DNA of 64,000 bases from Candidatus Altiarchaeales archaeon. Lineage in GTDB: Archaea > Altiarchaeota > Altiarchaeia > IMC4 > QMZM01. The stretch's first letter is position 1, and every line of letters begins with the position of its first letter. Shown piece after piece: positions 1,093-57,220 of this stretch. Both the position numbers and the translations under genes were made by a program. The notes below the pieces were generated by a model, which was not told the DNA's origin, made no database searches, and worked only from the letters and a program-made list of their open reading frames with translations. Location: contig CAVVMY010000016.1 of NCBI GenBank assembly GCA_963749405.1, positions 16,414 through 80,413 on the forward strand. The letters are read 5' to 3'.

Positions 1093-2106
1093 TTGAAAGA
1101 AATAATTTCCAGCGTAGTCGGCGGAAAAAATATGTCGGCGCAGGAGGCGGAAAAAGCATTAAAGATTATAATGAGCGGACAATCAACTGACATAGAGATA
1201 ACCGCGCTCCTCACAGGACTCAAAATCAAAGGAGAAACCCCGGAAGAGATAGCCGCATTCGCCAAAGTCATGAGGGAATATGCCTTAAAGATAGAGCCAA
1301 AAGTCTCAGGGACATTGGTTGACATGTGCGGAACAGGAGGCGACAAATCCAATACATTCAACATATCGACCACTGCGATGTTCATCGTGGCTGGCGCCGG
1401 AATACCTGTAGCAAAGCACGGAAACCGGGCCCTGACTTCCAAATGCGGATCAGCAGACGTCCTGGAAGCACTCGGCGTAGACCTCTCCATAGGCCCTGAG
1501 AAGATATGTAAATCCATCGAGGACGTAGGCATCGGCTTCATGTTTGCGCCCATGCATCATTCCGCGACAAAATATGTGATGCCAGTACGTAAAGCCCTTG
1601 GCTACAGAACCATTTTCAACATACTCGGGCCTCTCACAAATCCTGCGAATGCCAGAGCCCAGCTTATGGGTGTCTATGATCCGAGCCTTACTGAGAAACT
1701 TGCCGAGGTCTTCAGGATACTTGGCCTGGATAGGGCGATGGTAGTCCACGGAGCACCCGGCTTGGACGAACTGTCAAATGTTGGTAAGACAAAGGTTTCG
1801 GAATTAAAGGAAGACAAGGTAAATACTTACTACATAAGCCCTGAAGATTACGGCCTGGAGAAAGCGGATATGAAAGACCTCATGGGAGGAACACCCCAGG
1901 AAAACGCAGAGATATTGAAGAACATAATAAATGGTTCAGACACCGGACCAAGGAGGGACATCGCCCTCCTAAACGCCGCAGCAGGCATTGTGGTCGGTGG
2001 GAAAGCTCAAAACATAAGCGAAGGCCTCAATCTGGCAGAAGAAGTCCTGGAAGATGGCAGAGCATACGAAAAGCTGCGCGAATATATAAAATACTGCGGG
2101 AAATGA
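1093..2106 (+). CDS. trpD: anthranilate phosphoribosyltransferase
   Basis: 337 aa ORF with the GTGGD motif (CGTGGDKSNTFNISTTAMFIVAGAGIPVAKHGNRA), typical of TrpD. Confidence 0.9.
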   Translation: MKEIISSVVGGKNMSAQEAEKALKIIMSGQSTDIEITALLTGLKIKGETPEEIAAFAKVMREYALKIEPKVSGTLVDMCGTGGDKSNTFNISTTAMFIVAGAGIPVAKHGNRALTSKCGSADVLEALGVDLSIGPEKICKSIEDVGIGFMFAPMHHSATKYVMPVRKALGYRTIFNILGPLTNPANARAQLMGVYDPSLTEKLAEVFRILGLDRAMVVHGAPGLDELSNVGKTKVSELKEDKVNTYYISPEDYGLEKADMKDLMGGTPQENAEILKNIINGSDTGPRRDIALLNAAAGIVVGGKAQNISEGLNLAEEVLEDGRAYEKLREYIKYCGK

Positions 2107-2760
2107 ACCTCCCCGCCCTAAAGGGCGGGGTATCGTGTGTTAAAAATGTGTCAAAGTAGTTTGGTTGTGCTGGGTATACCAGCCGTGGTGTGTGTCGCTA
2201 ATGTATGCGGCGATTACGTCAGCGGTGACGTTGCCCACGGTGCGGAAAAACTTGCCGGGGCTCCAGAAATGTCCTTTACGGAAGTGCTTGCGCAGCCAAG
2301 GGTGCTGGCGGAAAAGGCGGAAGGCGCTTCCGCCCTTCAGCAACTGGAGCGCACGCGAGACGCTCATAGTGGGCGGCAGGCCCACAAACAGGTGCACATG
2401 GTCGGCCTGCACCTGCAACTCGAAAATCTCCATCCGGTTCTCCTGCGCGATTTCCCGCAGAAAACGCTCGCAATGGCCCCGGACCACTGCGAACTTGAAC
2501 GGATCCATTGCATATTTGGCTTTCCATACAAGATGGAATGCGTTTTGCCCTACTCCGTGGCTATGGGATGTCAGTCCTTTCATTTTTCACCGTCGGCGCA
2601 AAAATTTCGCATAGCTCACGCTAACACCAATACCAAAGGTGGGTGCGCCAACTACGCTGCGCACCCACCATTAAGAACGAGCGTAGAAAACAGGGAGGTA
2701 ACTAGCAAGGCAAGCGAACGATATCTAGTTCGCAATTCCTCTGCGGCCTAAAGGCCGCAG
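2107..2760 (-). mobile_element. IS200/IS605-family insertion sequence (TnpA only) inserted between trpD and trpC
   Basis: TnpA ORF flanked by subterminal perfect hairpins with identical TAAA loops (CCCCGCCC-TAAA-GGGCGGGG at 2109-2128; CTGCGGCC-TAAA-GGCCGCAG at 2742-2760). A further 11 bp stem (GGTGGGTGCGC...GCGCACCCACC) sits around 2639-2670. Local GC is clearly higher than the flanking trp genes. Confidence 0.7.
2140..2583 (-). CDS. tnpA: IS200/IS605 family transposase TnpA (HUH Y1-type)
   Basis: 147 aa with an HVHLFVGLPP HUH motif and typical length. The C-terminal region reads FWSPGKFFRTVG where a catalytic Tyr is expected, so activity is uncertain. Confidence 0.8.
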   Translation of the reverse strand: MKGLTSHSHGVGQNAFHLVWKAKYAMDPFKFAVVRGHCERFLREIAQENRMEIFELQVQADHVHLFVGLPPTMSVSRALQLLKGGSAFRLFRQHPWLRKHFRKGHFWSPGKFFRTVGNVTADVIAAYISDTHHGWYTQHNQTTLTHF

Positions 2761-2784
2761 TATCCTTGCGAAAAGTGTAATGAA

Positions 2785-3516
2785 ATGAAATTCGATTTTG
2801 AAAAAATAGAAACAGAGAAAAAAGAGGAGATAAAGGACCTAAAAAAGACGAGGTCCCTCATAGGAGCAATAGAAAAGGCCAAAAGGGAAGGAATGACGCC
2901 TATAATCGCAGAAGTAAAAAAGAAAAGCCCGAGCAGAGGAAAAATAAATGGGATAGAGCCTGACGATGCGTCCCTCCACATGGAAAGAGGCGGAGCCTGC
3001 GCAATATCGGTATTAACCGACAAATATTTCAACGGTAAGATATGCTATCTGCGCCAGGTCAAAAAAACAGTAAAAATACCGGTTCTGCGCAAGGATTTTA
3101 TCGTTGACATATTCCAGCTCTATGAAAGCCGGGGAAACGGCGCAGACGCAGTCCTGCTAATAGCTGCATTGCTAAAAGATAAGACAAAGGAATACGTAGA
3201 CAAAGCCCATGAACTGGGCATGGAAGCGCTCGTAGAAATCCACAACGCAGAAGACCTAGGCTACGCCGTTGCATCAGGCGCCAAACTAATAGGAATAAAC
3301 AACAGAGACCTCAGAACCCTTAAACTGGAGTTAAACGCAACAGAAACCCTCGCACCCAAAATCCCAAAAGACAGAATAATCGTCGCAGAAAGCGGGATAG
3401 AAACCATAGAAGACATCAAAAGACTGAAAAAAGCAGGCGCAGACGCCTTCCTCATAGGAACAAGCATTATGTCGTCGCCTGACATAGAGAAAAAACTAAA
3501 GGAGCTGACAAAATGA
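2785..3516 (+). CDS. trpC: indole-3-glycerol phosphate synthase
   Basis: 243 aa with IIAEVKKKSPSRG and a TIM-barrel pattern, sitting in the trp operon. Confidence 0.9.
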   Translation: MKFDFEKIETEKKEEIKDLKKTRSLIGAIEKAKREGMTPIIAEVKKKSPSRGKINGIEPDDASLHMERGGACAISVLTDKYFNGKICYLRQVKKTVKIPVLRKDFIVDIFQLYESRGNGADAVLLIAALLKDKTKEYVDKAHELGMEALVEIHNAEDLGYAVASGAKLIGINNRDLRTLKLELNATETLAPKIPKDRIIVAESGIETIEDIKRLKKAGADAFLIGTSIMSSPDIEKKLKELTK

Positions 3517-12214: not shown

Positions 12215-12250
12215 TTCAGTGGTCCCAGGGGGACCACACTTCTTTCTTTT
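12215..12250 (-). promoter_or_regulatory. conserved tRNA-trailer hairpin element (copy 1 of 3)
   Basis: Plus strand reads TTCAGTGG-TCCCAGGGGGA-CCACACTTCTTTCTTTT. The same CAGTGG-hairpin-CCAC(A)CTTCTTTTGCC core occurs at 15145-15178 and 54922-54957, each time between a minus-strand tRNA and the TATA region of the next minus-strand gene. Confidence 0.5.
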
Positions 12251-12286
12251 TTCCGTCAACGCTTTTTTCTTTCTTCCCAAGAAAGA

Positions 12287-12359
12287 AAAAAGGGTTGCGG
12301 GGGACGAGCTTCGAACTCGCGCAGACCTTCGTCACACGACCCTCAATCGTGCCCCTTTA
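12287..12359 (-). tRNA. tRNA-Leu(GAG)-like gene with aberrant or deleted D-arm (possible pseudo-tRNA)
   Basis: Minus strand reads GCGGTGG-GC-TAAAGGGG-[CACGA TTGAGGG TCGTG]-TGACGAAGGTCTGC-[GCGAG TTCGAAG CTCGT]-CCCCCGC-A. It has a perfect anticodon arm (anticodon GAG), a canonical T-arm and an acceptor stem with one mismatch. Only about 10 nt lie between acceptor and anticodon stem, so there is no D-arm. A TTAAAAA TATA-like box sits about 25 nt upstream. Confidence 0.4.
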
Positions 12360-12444
12360 GCCCACCGCGTCCCAATTTGAATATGAATAGGGGGTTTTTA
12401 AGACGCCTGTGTTTGGCCAGACTCGGGCACCCCCGCGTGTGTAT

Positions 12445-14260: not shown

Positions 14261-14947
14261 TTATTCTTTCTTTGGCTTATCGGCTGCTGGTGCTGCTTTC
14301 GGCGCCGCTGCGGGTGCTGCCGTCTTGGCTGCGCCTCCGGCTGCCTTCGGCGCTGCGGCTGCTGCCGCTGCTGCTTGGGCTGTTTTCTTCCTGCTGACGC
14401 CTATAGCGCTTCCAGTCCTAAACGAGGTTCTTGTCCTCTGCCCTCGGACAGGTAAGCCTAGTATGTGTCTTACGCCCTTGTATGATTTTATCCTCTTTTG
14501 CCGGGTAATGTCTTCTCTTTGGGATATTTCCAGCTCGGAACCGGTTAGGTGCAGGTTTTCTCCGGTAACGTAATCCCTCTGCCGGTTGGTCATCCAGTAA
14601 GGGATTTTCTTATTGAGAGTCATGATGTTATCTTCGATTTTCGTTATTTCTTCTTCTGTGAGGCCTCCAAGCTTCACCTCTTTTCCTATGCCCATTATGA
14701 GCAGCATTGCCTGCGTAGTATTCTGGCCTATGCCCCGGATCTTGGGCAGAACCCTGTAGACTTCCTTGTTTCCGTCCAATACGACGCCGGACACCCTGAC
14801 CAGCTGCCTGAAATTAGAATCAACCTTCTTTTCCTCGGCCTTCTTCTCAGGGGGCTTCCCGGGGTGAACTGGTTTCTTATCCGGCTGCTTCTCTGGCTTC
14901 TTTTCTACCTTCTCGTCGACTTTGGGTGCTCCTTCCTTTTTTTCCAT
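14261..14947 (-). CDS. rps13: 30S ribosomal protein S13 (uS13) with K/E-rich N-terminal and Ala/Pro/Lys-rich C-terminal low-complexity tails
   Basis: Core FRQLVRVSGVVLDGNKEV...GIGQNT...KGVRHILGLPVRGQRTRT is uS13. Start is chosen at the internal Met (MEKKEG, 14947) because the longer ORF to 15070 runs into the tRNA-trailer hairpins. C-terminus is AAAAAAAAPKAAGGAAKTAAPAAAPKAAPAADKPKKE. Confidence 0.8.
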   Translation of the reverse strand: MEKKEGAPKVDEKVEKKPEKQPDKKPVHPGKPPEKKAEEKKVDSNFRQLVRVSGVVLDGNKEVYRVLPKIRGIGQNTTQAMLLIMGIGKEVKLGGLTEEEITKIEDNIMTLNKKIPYWMTNRQRDYVTGENLHLTGSELEISQREDITRQKRIKSYKGVRHILGLPVRGQRTRTSFRTGSAIGVSRKKTAQAAAAAAAAPKAAGGAAKTAAPAAAPKAAPAADKPKKE

Positions 14948-15144
14948 TCTAAAGAGTCTTAAGTTATGGTACTCAGTCTTTATAAGCCAGCGCAGCGCAT
15001 CACACCACTCTATAGAAAAAACTTCCACAGACGGGAAAACGCCCTCGCCAGCCCAAAAAGACTGACTCAACCTCGAAGAATATTATAATGTATTAGGTCA
15101 TTAAAAATACTCCCAGCCTTCAAAACCAACCAATTCCCTCCCCT

Positions 15145-15178
15145 TCAGTGGCCCAACAAGGGCCACCTTCTTTTGCCA
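15145..15178 (-). promoter_or_regulatory. conserved tRNA-trailer hairpin element (copy 2 of 3)
   Basis: Plus strand reads TTCAGTGG-CCCAACAAGGG-CCACCTTCTTTTGCC. It is flanked by two more hairpins (GCCAGC-TTGC-GCTGGC and CCCTTCT-TTGA-GAAGGG) before the tRNA-Ser 3' end. Confidence 0.5.
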
Positions 15179-15241
15179 GCTTGCGCTGGCATCCTTGCGG
15201 ACTTTGGGGGTGAAGACATCCCTTCTTTGAGAAGGGAGGCT

Positions 15242-15329
15242 CGCCGAGGATGAGATTCGAACTCATGACCCCCTCGCGGAGAACGGGCTCTCAAGGCCCG
15301 CGCGTTAAACCGTGCTCTGCCACCTCGGC
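15242..15329 (-). tRNA. tRNA-Ser(TGA), class II with long variable arm
   Basis: 88 nt. Perfect acceptor stem GCCGAGG/CCTCGGC plus discriminator G. Anticodon arm is CGGGC-CTTGAGA-GCCCG (anticodon TGA). T-arm is ATGAG-TTCGAAT-CTCAT. A long variable arm is present. Confidence 0.8.
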
Positions 15330-15470
15330 ACCTGTAATGAACGTGAGTGCCGAGATGCCGACATTCGTCGTCACCTCGGCGTTGTGAATGAACATGAACA
15401 ACGCTGAGACGCCCGACCCGTAGGTCGGCTGCGCCTCGGCGTTGTGAATGAGGAGTGCGTTATATTCGCG
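15320..15470. repeat. three tandem imperfect copies (period about 50-57 bp) of the tRNA-Ser 5' end plus its upstream sequence
   Basis: C(A/G)CCTCGGC(A/G)(C/T)(C/T)GT(A/G)AATGA(A/G) recurs at about 15320, 15371 and 15428. Only the first copy is attached to the complete tRNA. A CGACCCGTAGGTCGG hairpin lies between copies 2 and 3. Confidence 0.5.
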
Positions 15471-24713: not shown

Positions 24714-24889
24714 TTTCTTAAAGTAGCATGCTGTAAACTGAAATTTAAGGCCTGAGAATGTATTATTAATCGTTTTATGTATAGTGGGTAGGAAAGAGGT
24801 AGGAATTCTTTCCTATTCTCCCACTAGTCATAAAAGAGGGCATGGGGAAGTAAGGAGCTTCCCCATGGGGATTCTCTCTTAGTATGACA

Positions 24890-40590: not shown

Positions 40591-41892
40591 ATGGCAGAGC
40601 AAGTCCTAGTCCTCAAGTCCGGATCATGCAGCTGGGCAAAATGCTGCTTCTGCGGATACGGCAGAACACCCGGAAAAGAGCCGACAACAGCCAAACTAAA
40701 GAAGGACTTTGACGCATTTTTTAATGACGTGCGCGCCGGCGACACAGTCAAGGTATTCGGCTCAGGGAGCTTCCTCGACACAAAACAGGTGCCCTTGGAC
40801 GCAAGGGCATATTTCATAGAAAAATGCCGCAGCACAGGCATAGAAAAACTATTCATAGAATCCAGGCCAGAATACATAAACGAAGCCGCACTAAAAGATT
40901 TTGACGGAATCAACCTCTCGGTAGCGATCGGCCTCGAAGTCGCAGACGACGTATTACTGGATAAGATAAACAAAGGATTCCACCTAAAAGACTATGATGA
41001 GGCCACGGCAAAGATACACAAATGCGGAGCAAAAGTGCGCACATACCTGCTCGCAAACCCGCCATACGCCAAAGACATAAAAAAGATCCTTGACAAATCC
41101 GTAGAATACGCGCTCATCCGCTCCGATACAATCGTCCTCATAAACCTGCTGCCCCATGGCAATACGCCGGTATTCAAGATGTGGCTGACAGGTACGTGGA
41201 ATTTTCTATCCCGCGAAGAATTTTACAAATTAACTGATAGCTGGAAAGACAACCCAAAAATAGAACTCGACGCCGAAACCTTCAGATTCATACCGAAATT
41301 CCCGGAACAACTTAAAGAACGGCTAAACGGTGTAGGCGAAGCCTTCCTCACACACCCGCACTTCGAAGTATGGCAGGACTACCTGCAAAGATGGTACACG
41401 CCGCCAGAAGAGAAGGACATACTATTATTCCTACCCTGCTCATACCAAAAACCATACTCACACTCCAAAACGCACCAAGGGATAATAGAAACCGCAAAGA
41501 AGACGGGCAAATACCAAAGAATACACCAGGTGATGATCAGCAACACCGGCCTCGTCCCAAGGAAATACGAAGACTGCTACCCCTTCAACGCATACGACTG
41601 GGACGAATCACTGGAGACAGAGGAGATAAAAAAGAGATACATAGAGGTAACAAAGACACGGATAAAGAGATATTTAACCTGCCACAGAAATAAGTACAGG
41701 ACCATCATCTGCTTCCTGAAATACAGCTCAGAAAGCTACCAGGCACTCGAAGCCGCATGCAGGGAACTTGGTATTCCAATGATAAACCTGCTCTCAAAAG
41801 AGACATATGAAAAAATCAGAAAAGAAGGAAAGCCGCTTCAGACAGACGCGGCTCTTAGCGATCTATACAACAATCTAACCAAGGAAACATGA
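40591..41892 (+). CDS. radical-SAM-like (CxxxxCxxC) protein fused to an uncharacterised C-terminal domain; possibly tRNA/archaeosine-modification related
   Basis: N-terminal CSWAKCCFCGY cluster and TIM-barrel-like radical SAM core features. The C-terminal 200 aa has conserved Cys/His. The functional call is tentative. Confidence 0.4.
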   Translation: MAEQVLVLKSGSCSWAKCCFCGYGRTPGKEPTTAKLKKDFDAFFNDVRAGDTVKVFGSGSFLDTKQVPLDARAYFIEKCRSTGIEKLFIESRPEYINEAALKDFDGINLSVAIGLEVADDVLLDKINKGFHLKDYDEATAKIHKCGAKVRTYLLANPPYAKDIKKILDKSVEYALIRSDTIVLINLLPHGNTPVFKMWLTGTWNFLSREEFYKLTDSWKDNPKIELDAETFRFIPKFPEQLKERLNGVGEAFLTHPHFEVWQDYLQRWYTPPEEKDILLFLPCSYQKPYSHSKTHQGIIETAKKTGKYQRIHQVMISNTGLVPRKYEDCYPFNAYDWDESLETEEIKKRYIEVTKTRIKRYLTCHRNKYRTIICFLKYSSESYQALEAACRELGIPMINLLSKETYEKIRKEGKPLQTDAALSDLYNNLTKET

Positions 41893-54921: not shown

Positions 54922-54957
54922 AACAGTGGGGTCTGAAGACCCCACACTTCTTTTGCC
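54922..54957 (-). promoter_or_regulatory. conserved tRNA-trailer hairpin element (copy 3 of 3)
   Basis: Plus strand reads AACAGTGG-GGTCTGAAGACC-CCACACTTCTTTTGCC, followed by GGGCATGCCC and CCTCCCT-AA-GGGAGG hairpins before the tRNA 3' end. Confidence 0.5.
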
Positions 54958-55011
54958 CCTTCCAGGGCATGCCCTCGGCATTTGGGATGATAACCTCCCT
55001 AAGGGAGGCTA

Positions 55012-55085
55012 TGCCCACGCCGGGATTCGAACCCGGGTCAAGGGATCCGCAATCCCCCAGGATGTCCTAGCTACCCCACGTGGGC
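55012..55085 (-). tRNA. tRNA (74 nt); anticodon ambiguous between Arg(GCG) and Ala(TGC) by hand-folding
   Basis: Acceptor is GCCCACG/CGTGGGC plus A. T-arm is CCGGG-TTCGAAT-CCCGG. The anticodon region is CTGGGGGATTGCGGATCCCT. The better-paired fold gives loop TTGCGGA (GCG). C3:G70 argues against Ala. Confidence 0.75.
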
Positions 55086-55231: not shown

Positions 55232-55882
55232 TTATTCCGCCAAGCCCCTTATATACCCGTTTTCTGTGTGTGTTGCTGTGATTGCACTCGTGGTCGCCTT
55301 GTAGGTCATTACAACCATCATATTGTATACAGCACCTGTTGGCACCGAAGTACAGCCCGTACCTGAGACGCTGAACACTTCGCCCGACAGAACGTTGGAT
55401 GATGAGGGAGTTACTGTACCACAAGAACCGCCGGAGATTGTCTCATTCAGGGATACGCTAATTACTCTTATAGGCGATCCTGCATCGTTTGTGAAAGTCG
55501 CGTTAAAGTTGGTGCCCTTGTATGCCACGCTCGGCATCATAGGATTCACTCTAACGAAGCCGGTCTCTACCGGCCCCCCTTGCCCGGCGTTGAAGACGCC
55601 AAGCTGCCAGAGAATTAAACCGACGACCATAACCACCAGTATGGCCCATCCGTAAGACATCAGGTACTCCATTGCCCCCTGTCCCCTGTTGTCCATATAA
55701 AACGAGATAGGCATGTTTACATGACCCAAGATAAAAGCAAAAATCAGAAGTATGATTAAGCCTGCTAAAAAAACAGCGGCTATAGTTGCGAAGTCTATTG
55801 GAGTTAAGTTGTTACTCTCGTTTATCACCTGATTGACTGAGTCTATTAATGGATTGGCAAATGCAACCAAAGTATTTCTCAT
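55232..55882 (-). CDS. class III signal peptide (archaeal type IV pilin-like) protein, diverged paralog
   Basis: Contains RGQGAMEYLMSYGWAILVVMVVGLILWQLGVFNAGQ (class III signal/prepilin cleavage-like motif plus hydrophobic mature N-terminus). The annotated ORF has an upstream extension, so the true start is likely near MDNRGQG. Confidence 0.6.
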   Translation of the reverse strand: MRNTLVAFANPLIDSVNQVINESNNLTPIDFATIAAVFLAGLIILLIFAFILGHVNMPISFYMDNRGQGAMEYLMSYGWAILVVMVVGLILWQLGVFNAGQGGPVETGFVRVNPMMPSVAYKGTNFNATFTNDAGSPIRVISVSLNETISGGSCGTVTPSSSNVLSGEVFSVSGTGCTSVPTGAVYNMMVVMTYKATTSAITATHTENGYIRGLAE

Positions 55883-56017
55883 CTTTACTATATTAAAAAA
55901 TTTGTATTCAGGTACTATAAATATATAACAGACAGTAGGTAATAGTTGGAGAAAAAAAGGATAAGAAGAAAAGGTGCATACCGCACCCCCATAACAGATA
56001 AAATATATAGTTATCCG

Positions 56018-56491
56018 TTATTCACCTTCGCCCCTTATGTAGCCGGTTTCTGTGTGCATTGTGGTGTATCCAGCCAGGCTCGAGTTGTAGGTTATTATAA
56101 TCATCATATTGTATGCAGCACCGGTTATCACCGAGGGACAGGTCGTACCTGCAAGGTTGAACACCCCACCCGCCATAACAGGGGCTGAGGGAACTACTAA
56201 GGTAGTACAATTAACGCCGTTAATCGTCTCATTCATGATCACAGTCATTAGTCTTATAGGCGCACCTACGTTATTCGTGAAAGTCGCGTTAAAGGCCGTA
56301 GTCTTATACACAACGCTCGGCATCAAAGGATTCAACCTGACGAAACCAGTCCCTACCGGGGCTCCCTGTCCTGAATTGAAGACCCCAAGCTGCCATAGGA
56401 CTACACCAACTATCATAACGACGAGTATTGCCCATCCATAGGTCATCAGATACTCCATAGCACCCTGACCCTTGTTTCCTAGATATTCCAT
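56018..56491 (-). CDS. class III signal peptide pilin-like protein (copy A)
   Basis: MEYLGNKGQGAMEYLMTYGWAILVVMIVGVVLWQLGVFNSGQ..., 157 aa. Confidence 0.7.
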   Translation of the reverse strand: MEYLGNKGQGAMEYLMTYGWAILVVMIVGVVLWQLGVFNSGQGAPVGTGFVRLNPLMPSVVYKTTAFNATFTNNVGAPIRLMTVIMNETINGVNCTTLVVPSAPVMAGGVFNLAGTTCPSVITGAAYNMMIIITYNSSLAGYTTMHTETGYIRGEGE

Positions 56492-56746
56492 TTTAAATCT
56501 GTCCTCTGTTTTTTGTTTTTAATTTCTTAACATATGTATAAAGTATGACATTTTCTAATATAAATACTTTCCGGTGAGGAAAATGCTAAGATACTCCATA
56601 GTCTTTACTAAGAAGACTGCTGATGTCCGTGGCCAAGCCATTGGTCTTAGACATGCGCCGATTTGTAATCAGATAAAGAAAAAAGATAAGAAAGGAGGGT
56701 GCTGGGATACCGCACCCCCATAACAGATAAAATATATAGTTATCCG

Positions 56747-57220
56747 TTATTCACCTTCGCCCCTTATGTAGCCGGTTTCTGTGTGCATTGTGGTGTATCC
56801 AGCCAGGCTCGAGTTGTAGGTTATTATAATCATCATATTGTATGCAGCACCGGTTATCACCGAGGGACAGGTCGTACCTGCAAGGTTGAACACCCCACCC
56901 GCCATAACAGGGGCTGAGGGAACTACTAAGGTAGTACAATTAACGCCGTTAATCGTCTCATTCATGATCACAGTCATTAGTCTTATAGGCGCACCTACGT
57001 TATTCGTGAAAGTCGCGTTAAAGGCCGTAGTCTTATACACAACGCTCGGCATCAAAGGATTCAACCTGACGAAACCAGTCTCTACCGGGGCTCCCTGTCC
57101 TGAATTGAAGACCCCAAGCTGCCATAGGACTACACCAACTATCATAACGACGAGTATTGCCCATCCATAGGTCATCAGATACTCCATAGCACCCTGACCC
57201 TTGTTTCCTAAGTATTTCAT
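56747..57220 (-). CDS. class III signal peptide pilin-like protein (copy B)
   Basis: 98-99% identical to copy A (MKYLGNKGQGAMEYL...). Confidence 0.7.
   Translation of the reverse strand: MKYLGNKGQGAMEYLMTYGWAILVVMIVGVVLWQLGVFNSGQGAPVETGFVRLNPLMPSVVYKTTAFNATFTNNVGAPIRLMTVIMNETINGVNCTTLVVPSAPVMAGGVFNLAGTTCPSVITGAAYNMMIIITYNSSLAGYTTMHTETGYIRGEGE

Follow-up and report, generated by a model that had tools for sequence, protein, structure and literature searches.

The motif that recurs behind three tRNA genes in the 64-kb stretch of archaeal DNA analysed here (the window) is the far end of a 60-120 nt cassette that trails tRNA genes. The cassette is restricted to one subclade of Candidatus Altiarchaeota, and the pairing of its flagged hairpin is under selection. 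The element is a real, selected, lineage-restricted structured variation on terminator-like elements, the function of which we infer. Our best explanation, held tentatively and well short of even confidence, is that the cassette serves as a transcription boundary, separating a tRNA gene under heavy transcription from the gene next to it.

On the plus strand, the motif CAGTGG-N11/12-CCAC(A)CTTCTTT is found three times in the window, at 12217-12245, 15146-15173 and 54924-54953. The search pattern (CAGTGG-N{5,16}-CCAC-N{0,1}-CTTCTTT) had no match across 100 dinucleotide-preserving shuffles of the window; a chance origin of the motif is excluded. All three copies lie 45-65 nt past the 3' ends of minus-strand tRNA genes. 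A scan for T-arms with matching acceptor stems yields three tRNA genes in the window, Leu(GAG), Ser(TGA) and Arg(GCG), and the element stands behind each of them and nowhere else in the 64 kb. The motif shared by the three tRNA loci, as described in a first-pass annotation, is thereby recovered exactly, and the window holds no copy away from tRNA genes, which the annotation had named as a sign of chance similarity. Its sequence abutting the tRNA 3' end at two of the three loci, AAGGGAGGC, is likewise present at the Ser and Arg loci, where it is one arm of a separate hairpin (hairpin 1). The proposed distance of 40-80 nt to the next start codon fits the ATG codons of L18e (39 nt) and ferredoxin (65 nt) but not that of S13, whose true ATG at 14947 is about 200 nt away. 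The features of the three loci are listed in Table 1.

Table 1 Features of the three tRNA loci of the window (strand "." denotes features without strand assignment)
Feature	Coordinates	Strand	Description
tRNA-Leu(GAG), 56-nt D-loop insert	12296..12436	-	insert-free sequence called by ARAGORN; T-arm and acceptor stem present
hairpin 1, locus 1	12257..12297	.	tRNA sense ACCC-TTTTTTCTTTCTT-GGG-AAGAAAGAAAAAA; inverted repeat I1
flagged element 1	12216..12254	.	plus strand TCA, hairpin GTGGTCCC-AGG-GGGACCAC (12219-12237), ACTTCTTTCTTTTTTCC
tRNA-Ser(TGA)	15241..15330	-	ARAGORN, Rfam, T-arm/acceptor scan
hairpin 1, locus 2	15219..15237	.	tRNA sense TCCCTTCT-CAA-AGAAGGGA; perfect 8-bp stem; includes AAGGGAGGC
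small extra hairpin, locus 2	15174..15191	.	tRNA sense TGCCAGC-GCAA-GCTGGCA
flagged element 2	15145..15177	.	plus strand TCA, hairpin GTGGCCC-AACAA-GGGCCAC (15148-15166), CTTCTTTTGCC
tRNA-Arg(GCG)	55012..55085	-	ARAGORN, Rfam, T-arm/acceptor scan
hairpin 1, locus 3	54990..55012	.	tRNA sense CCTCCC-TTA-GGGAGG; inverted repeat I1, 91% complementary
two small TG...CA hairpin units, locus 3	54954..54980	.	between spacer and purine tract; one unit at 54954-54969
flagged element 3	54923..54956	.	plus strand ACA, hairpin GTGGGGTC-TGAA-GACCCCAC (54926-54945), ACTTCTTTTGCC

The tRNA-Leu(GAG) gene is missed by ARAGORN and Rfam because of the 56-nt insert in its D-loop; ARAGORN calls tRNA-Leu(gag) once the insert is removed. 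The insert occupies a non-canonical intron position, which is the same in the orthologs of L082, L085, L087, L210 and L211, and a D-loop insert is also found in L002-L004 and L208. The tRNA-Leu genes of L002 and L208 carry a second insert in the variable-arm region, and the tRNA-Ser of L208 has an insert as well. Upstream of tRNA-Ser, two to three repeats with a spacing of 51-60 nt are found in the window (15331-15455), L082 (4860-5011), L147 (4045-4150) and L210 (2190-2255). In each unit, a box similar to TTCATTACA is accompanied by the initial 9 nt of the tRNA (GCCGAGGTG) and by a hairpin closing with CTCGGC; the repeats resemble decoy 5' ends of the tRNA or multiple copies of a promoter. 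A conserved non-coding block of about 100 nt (window ~14990-15095, minus strand) separates the S13 promoter from the trailer of tRNA-Ser. This block contains an A/T box of its own (ATTATAATAT), a T6 run and a core GGCNGGCGAGGGCG...CCCGTCTG; L082 and L210 share it, L085 does so partly, and it may represent the leader of an r-protein operon or a small RNA. Just upstream of tRNA-Arg, three tandem paralogous genes (55232-57220, minus strand) encode a QGAMEYLMTYGWAILVV-type N-terminus, presumably akin to archaeal pilin-like class III signal peptides; a Pfam search with the first of the three returned no family.

Thirteen copies of the cassette were collected from seven related genomes or contigs, window included. 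They stand behind tRNA-Leu (window, L082, L087, L085, L210, L211), tRNA-Ser (window, L082, L147, L210) and tRNA-Arg (window), with second copies behind a partial 3' tRNA-Ser duplicate in L147 and L210. The L18e protein encoded beside locus 1 has Candidatus Altiarchaeota MAGs as the source of its best named homologs. Orthologous loci were obtained by exact-protein look-ups (L082-L087, L208-L214) and from species-representative genomes (L002-L006, L014). The L147 locus is a true match of a metagenome-wide pattern scan with at least 120 matches; among the matches listed it is the only true relative, and almost all of these are chance matches without stem pairing. Four metagenome contigs (L098, L127, L150, L155) carry a repeat of the form AAGAAGGTGTGG-(GC hairpin)-CCACTGAG, with up to three tandem copies in L155. 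They were rejected as relatives, as they contain few ORFs, no clear genes and no tRNA, and their likeness is limited to the features selected by the pattern; these contigs are probably not archaeal.

In tRNA sense, the parts of the cassette follow in the order tRNA, pyrimidine/purine hairpin (hairpin 1), spacer GYTTNAYCC, purine tract AAAGAAAGAAG(G), perfect hairpin (hairpin 2, the flagged one) and TGA, so that flagged element 1 reads purine tract, hairpin, TGA. Hairpin 1 starts after the discriminator base and 3-6 nt ending in CC or TC. Its 5' arm is purely pyrimidine and its 3' arm purely purine, with TTTTTTCTTTCTT/AAGAAAGAAAAAA at tRNA-Leu, CCCTTCT/AGAAGGG at tRNA-Ser and CCTCCC/GGGAGG at tRNA-Arg. 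At locus 1 it forms a 19-nt palindrome that adjoins the tRNA (95% complementary, arms 3 nt apart) and yields T6 runs on both strands, one in tRNA sense and two in antisense; this hairpin is kept in the tRNA-Leu orthologs. In some lineages the spacer is followed by one to four small GC hairpins, each of the type TG...CA and linked via CATG, which are arranged head-to-tail with AAAG repeats at their flanks (WIN2, WIN3, L210, L211). The small hairpin of locus 2, with a loop of the GNRA type (GCAA) on the tRNA-sense strand, lies within a 28-nt stretch that is missing from the tRNA-Ser trailers of L082, L147 and L210, and units like those of locus 3 are also present in the tRNA-Leu trailers of L210 and L211. 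Hairpin 2 has a perfect stem of 7-10 bp with variable sequence and a loop of 3-6 nt. Its distance to the purine tract is 0-2 nt in all 13 copies, and TGA follows directly 3' in eight of them, with TGT, GGA, TTA or CGA elsewhere. Perfect GC hairpins beyond the tRNA trailers are found at 40790-40809 (TGCCCTTG-GACG-CAAGGGCA) and 24841-24867 (CATGGGGAAG-N7-CTTCCCCATG).

The purine tract resembles the purine arm of hairpin 1, which could reflect an alternative pairing, a duplication or just low complexity. At locus 1, the 17 nt at 12236-12252 show 82% complementarity to hairpin 1, namely to its far arm at 12279-12295 (inverted repeat I2), and the G spacing shifts jointly in both purine tracts, from GAAAG in the window to GAAAAG in L082 and L085. 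The two tracts of this locus form an exact 13-nt mirror repeat (AAGAAAGAAAAAA ... AAAAAAGAAAGAA, 10-nt spacer), matched at 12 of 13 positions in L082 and L085. Such a repeat, together with the equal stability of the hairpins on both strands, is what would be seen if the palindromes extruded as cruciforms and the purine/pyrimidine tracts formed a triplex (H-DNA), absorbing supercoiling or stalling polymerases beside the highly transcribed tRNA gene. This is very improbable. The tRNA-Ser purine tracts are direct rather than mirror repeats, so the triplex potential is not general, and stems of 7-8 bp are short for cruciform extrusion. A triple helix was rejected on the finding that the exact mirror repeat is limited to the tRNA-Leu loci.

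The stem of hairpin 2 varies widely while remaining paired. Its variants include GTGGTCCC/GGGACCAC, GTGGCCC/GGGCCAC, GTGGGGTC/GACCCCAC and CTGGCCC/GGGCCAG, with G:C to C:G flips (GTGG/CCAC versus CTGG/CCAG), and wholly different AT-rich stems are found in L085 (AAAAATCTGC/GCAGATTTTT) and L210 (AATTTGC/GCAAATT). For the covariation analysis, the ten GC-type copies were aligned (alignment A4, one row of which is off by one column). Standard pairs make up 89.9% of the cells; with the 3' partners shifted by 1-3 columns, this share is 36-53%. Changes on both sides are seen in four of the eight pairs, and the observed covariation score was reached by none of 500 shuffles, a count that is not a probability since the copies are related. 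The replacement of whole stems at the same position is the stronger argument for selection. Taken together, this shows that the hairpin pairing is under selection. Two proposals of the first-pass annotation, that the hairpin cores keep their pairing by compensatory changes and that a structured element is linked to the tRNA genes, are supported.

The element is also specific. When 915 kb of archaeal DNA, from relatives as well as unrelated archaea and with 80 other archaeal L18e loci among it, are searched with a covariance model built from alignment A4, only the ten training copies are recovered (E 2e-6 to 3e-4). Likewise, a scan of 217 kb of Altiarchaeota DNA for a purine run next to a hairpin of at least 7 bp found GC-rich cases only in these trailers. 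With Rfam 15, at gathering score and at E<=1, no family matches the elements; the tRNA alone reaches the gathering score, and the two matches below threshold (E 0.22 and 0.76) both fall on the tRNA-Arg gene itself. Upon reading 13 trailers, neither a C box nor an ACA box was found, and a CUGA after the stem is not conserved. A K-turn, a box C/D RNA and an H/ACA RNA were rejected, as the flanks have neither a 3-nt bulge with tandem G-A geometry nor the boxes. Further candidates were a small ORF ending at the TGA, the frame of which is not common to the copies, and an antisense small RNA with its own promoter, for which a hand count at three loci found no A/T box consistently at -24 to -30 from the TCA flank. 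Scans of viral collections with the exact stem types gave five chance matches, none near a tRNA. Because the stem varies in sequence, the element is unlikely to be the binding site of a dimeric, sequence-specific DNA-binding protein. A helix that would join the spacer to the 3' flank over a longer range was also considered; its cognate pairs score only slightly better than non-cognate ones (permutation p = 0.03), an effect driven by three loci.

The distribution of the cassette among relatives follows the tRNA genes. In L082, with an L18e identity of 97%, tRNA-Ser has moved from S13 to a position upstream of a carbonic-anhydrase-like gene, and the cassette is still found 40 nt behind it, while the region upstream of S13 in L082 has none. 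The partial tRNA-Ser duplicates each have a cassette of their own. The element therefore goes with the tRNA and not with the promoter of the next operon. These partial 3' copies (L147 3750-3790 and L210 2530-2575; variable arm, T arm and acceptor strand) lie about 190 nt downstream of the full gene and resemble an integration or duplication scar at a tRNA. Presence in orthologous trailers, the lack of which would have argued for chance similarity according to the first-pass annotation, is seen at tRNA-Leu and tRNA-Ser of close relatives but not throughout. In L213, from the sample shared with L082, the 115-nt trailer of tRNA-Arg is unrelated and has no counterpart of the element, although the ferredoxin promoter is nearly identical to that of the window; given this loss in a close relative, the element is dispensable. 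Altiarchaeota with an L18e identity of 70% or less keep the tRNA-Leu gene and lack the element, and behind tRNA-Ser of L208 only a palindrome like hairpin 1 remains.

Such gains and losses would also be expected if the cassette belonged to a fast-turnover family of small perfect palindromes, REP-like or miniature mobile, that build up in tRNA 3' flanks via gene conversion, template switching or a tRNA-linked recombination hot spot, with any function incidental. The stems pair perfectly on either strand with hardly any wobble, and the same stem recurs at different genes (GTGGTCCC at tRNA-Leu of the window and tRNA-Ser of L082, GTGGCCC at tRNA-Ser of the window and tRNA-Leu of L087). Moreover, the order of parts is common to the whole tRNA-Leu, tRNA-Ser and tRNA-Arg trailers, the tRNA-Arg copy differs in presence between close relatives with conserved flanks, and the tandem TG...CA hairpins and partial tRNA-Ser duplicates are in keeping with such a family. 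Perfect hairpins of at least 7 bp number 16 in the window, compared to 5.5 in shuffles of the whole window, and six of the 16 are located within the three trailers. We nevertheless consider this origin unlikely. The hairpin stands right behind the purine tract in every copy, across at least six lineages and even where the stem is wholly replaced, and this fixed position is a sign of selection. A mobile unit delimited by terminal inverted repeats or target duplications is not seen, and the window holds just the three copies, all behind tRNAs. TG...CA palindromes as a window-wide family were rejected, with 25 found versus 18.6 in shuffles (no enrichment). The IS200-like transposase of the window, in turn, has other end hairpins, with TAAA loops, and adjoins TTAC as known IS200/IS605 elements do.

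This IS200-like element (window 2100-2790) contains a Y1_Tnp transposase gene at 2140-2583 on the minus strand. Its ends carry 8-bp GC hairpins in the same orientation, CCCCGCCC-TAAA-GGGCGGGG and CTGCGGCC-TAAA-GGCCGCAG (2111-2130 and 2741-2760), with TTAC located 16 nt outside the left hairpin. At its left end (~2770-2790), TTCATTTCATTACA is similar to the repeat upstream of tRNA-Ser.

The strand on which the cassette might act was considered from several sides. Whole-trailer folding energies (sense minus antisense) have a mean of -0.6 kcal/mol and range from -6.3 to +7.1 across 11 trailers; an assignment from folding energy was rejected for lack of bias. Wobble pairs are nearly absent, with 1-2 in about 95 stem pairs in a hand tally of the 13 copies. 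The acting strand is thus not settled by energies or wobble pairs. Weak hints in favour of the tRNA-sense strand come from three small hairpins nearby, which have GCAA loops in that sense, and from the bases flanking the stem, which by hand reading could form a closing G-U pair in five of the 12 copies examined, A-U in one and G-C in one. A closing G-U of the tRNA-sense strand is an A-C mismatch on the other strand, and the single internal G-U (L210 Leu) is possible only on the tRNA-sense strand. Hints towards the opposite strand are given by the hairpin always abutting a pyrimidine tract and by its high rank in terminator scans.

If the tRNA-sense strand acts, hairpin 2 would be part of the pre-tRNA 3' trailer, transcribed with the tRNA near the 3' end of the primary transcript, where it would block 3'-to-5' exonucleases or mark a processing site until the trailer is removed. 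In bacterial tRNA operons, the terminator hairpin plays this trailer-protecting role. We view this as possible but doubtful. tRNA-Ser and tRNA-Arg have no oligo-T between tRNA and hairpin, the first T4-T5 runs being located 17-36 nt past the hairpin, so the hairpin should be included in the transcript. The relocation of the cassette with the tRNA, its duplication along with a partial 3' copy of tRNA-Ser, the GNRA-type loops and the G-U and A-U closing pairs agree with a role in the trailer. However, a T4-T6 run stands directly behind tRNA-Leu, where most transcripts should end before the hairpin, and yet the hairpin is kept in six of six tRNA-Leu orthologs. The lack of strand bias in folding energy and the near absence of wobble pairs also count against it, as does the missing element at tRNA-Arg of L213, and the conserved purine tract would be left without a role.

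As a transcription boundary, the cassette would combine two signals. The hairpin 1 palindrome at tRNA-Leu, with oligo-T on both strands, would provide an ordinary archaeal termination signal that works in both directions. On the strand opposite to the tRNA, the flagged part would form a GC hairpin of 7-10 bp with a CUUCUUU(C/U)UUU tract starting 0-2 nt behind it, the outline of an intrinsic terminator assisted by a hairpin. Its orientation, from the side of the next gene toward the tRNA, suggests that antisense or divergent transcripts may be stopped before they enter the tRNA gene. We infer from these sequence features that the element acts as RNA, which strand acts, and that transcription is terminated. 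The first-pass annotation had listed 3' processing, termination, an insulator and a regulatory site without choosing among them; after the present analysis, a repeat and a boundary-type or terminator-like role are the candidates left from this range.

Several findings favour the boundary. All three copies are among the top terminator-like plus-strand sites in two 20-kb scans. No comparable GC hairpin with CTTCTTT stands at a gene end in the 40 kb scanned, so the element is not the general terminator form of this genome. The stem is free in sequence and keeps its pairing, as expected of a terminator hairpin. The close spacing of hairpin and tract in all 13 copies and the specificity of the covariance model speak for the boundary as well. 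At tRNA-Leu, the hairpin is located 8-13 nt upstream of the TATA region of L18e in four of six lineages (WIN1, L082, L087, L211), and would be the first obstacle for a divergent transcript. The neighbouring palindrome at this gene already gives oligo-T on both strands, and the element accompanies the tRNA rather than the promoter. From published work, bacterial intrinsic terminators consist of a 7-8 bp hairpin and a U run, and hairpins apparently aided termination in one archaeal in-vitro system (PMC8716108, PMC2253867).

The same sources count against the boundary in that archaeal RNA polymerases stop at U4-7 tracts and do not require a hairpin (PMC8716108, PMC2253867). The downstream gene is co-directional with the tRNA in every case, and the tRNA-Ser copy of L082 has no promoter within 200 nt. 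To our knowledge, no source of antisense transcription has been described. Many of the tracts consist only of T3-T4 runs broken by C, and as the C positions are conserved, U-richness alone is insufficient as an explanation. The boundary also does not account for the conserved TGA flank and the GYTTNAYCC spacer, and the weak hints from GCAA loops and closing G-U pairs, as well as the loss at tRNA-Arg of L213, stand against it. A bolder version, which we consider improbable, is that this archaeal lineage evolved a true hairpin-dependent terminator of the bacterial style, a directional insulator that shields tRNA genes from antisense transcription by the neighbouring promoter. In a variant of this version, the proximal arm of pyrimidines could become an alternative partner of the purine tract (17 nt at locus 1, 82% complementary), giving a boundary open to regulation.

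Archaeal termination and 3'-end formation are known mainly from a few cultured models, in which U tracts suffice and hairpins are thought to be dispensable. The cassette places a selected hairpin at a fixed position behind tRNA genes of an uncultured DPANN-related lineage and offers more than 12 natural stem variants. If it terminates or insulates, it would be a natural case of hairpin-assisted termination in Archaea; as a true hairpin-dependent insulator, it would further mean that such termination is under selection where U tracts are thought sufficient. A structure of the pre-tRNA trailer would point to an unknown step of 3' maturation or protection, and a repeat would make tRNA 3' flanks sinks for small palindromes. 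In every case the element is of use in annotation, since it points to tRNA genes, among them intron-bearing genes overlooked by standard tools, and marks operon boundaries.

Among known systems, the terminator hairpins of bacterial tRNA operons resemble the cassette in placing a stable hairpin in the tRNA 3' trailer after a single-stranded A-rich tract. In bacteria, RNase E cuts at the A-rich position before the trailer hairpin. In contrast to these, no U tract follows the hairpin of the element on the tRNA-sense strand, where the stem is followed by TGA, and we know of no archaeal enzyme that uses such a trailer site. Bacterial REP/BIME elements are likewise short extragenic palindromes, sometimes in tandem, with units that recur at unrelated loci and are gained and lost rapidly, and REPs are annotated as stabilising or terminating transcripts. 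They differ from the element, whose three copies in the window all stand behind tRNAs and whose covariance model recovers none but its training copies in 915 kb. A REP-associated transposase (RAYT) flanked by matching units was not found in the window, and we rejected a connection with REP/RAYT or the IS200-like transposase, as the end hairpins and the TTAC target differ from the tRNA-trailer hairpins.

A closer likeness in shape is offered by the bacterial Rho-independent terminator. On the plus strand, the three window copies have a GC-rich hairpin of 7-8 bp with six G-C pairs and a loop of 3-5 nt, directly followed by a T-rich tract (at least five T in the 8 nt starting 0-2 nt past the stem, in runs of T3-T6 broken by conserved C residues), and the stem is free in sequence with conserved pairing. 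The differences are the archaeal host, the conserved C residues that interrupt the tract, the conserved sequence of the flanks (TCA, CTTCTTTCTTT) and the position: the element faces the promoter of a co-directional neighbour and not a gene end on its own strand. On the plus strand, the elements are preceded by the starts of minus-strand genes (L18e, ferredoxin) or by non-coding DNA, with no gene 3' end. Archaeal oligo-T terminators, including tandem back-ups (PMC2253867, PMC8716108), are comparable in that the cassette lies directly behind a stable-RNA gene and in that the proximal palindrome at tRNA-Leu gives T6 in tRNA sense (ACCCTTTTTTCTTTCTT). At tRNA-Ser (GCCTCCCTTCTC) and tRNA-Arg (TAGCCTCCCTTAGG), however, there is no sense-strand oligo-T between tRNA and hairpin, and whereas archaeal terminators do not need a hairpin, the hairpin of this cassette is clearly kept by selection.
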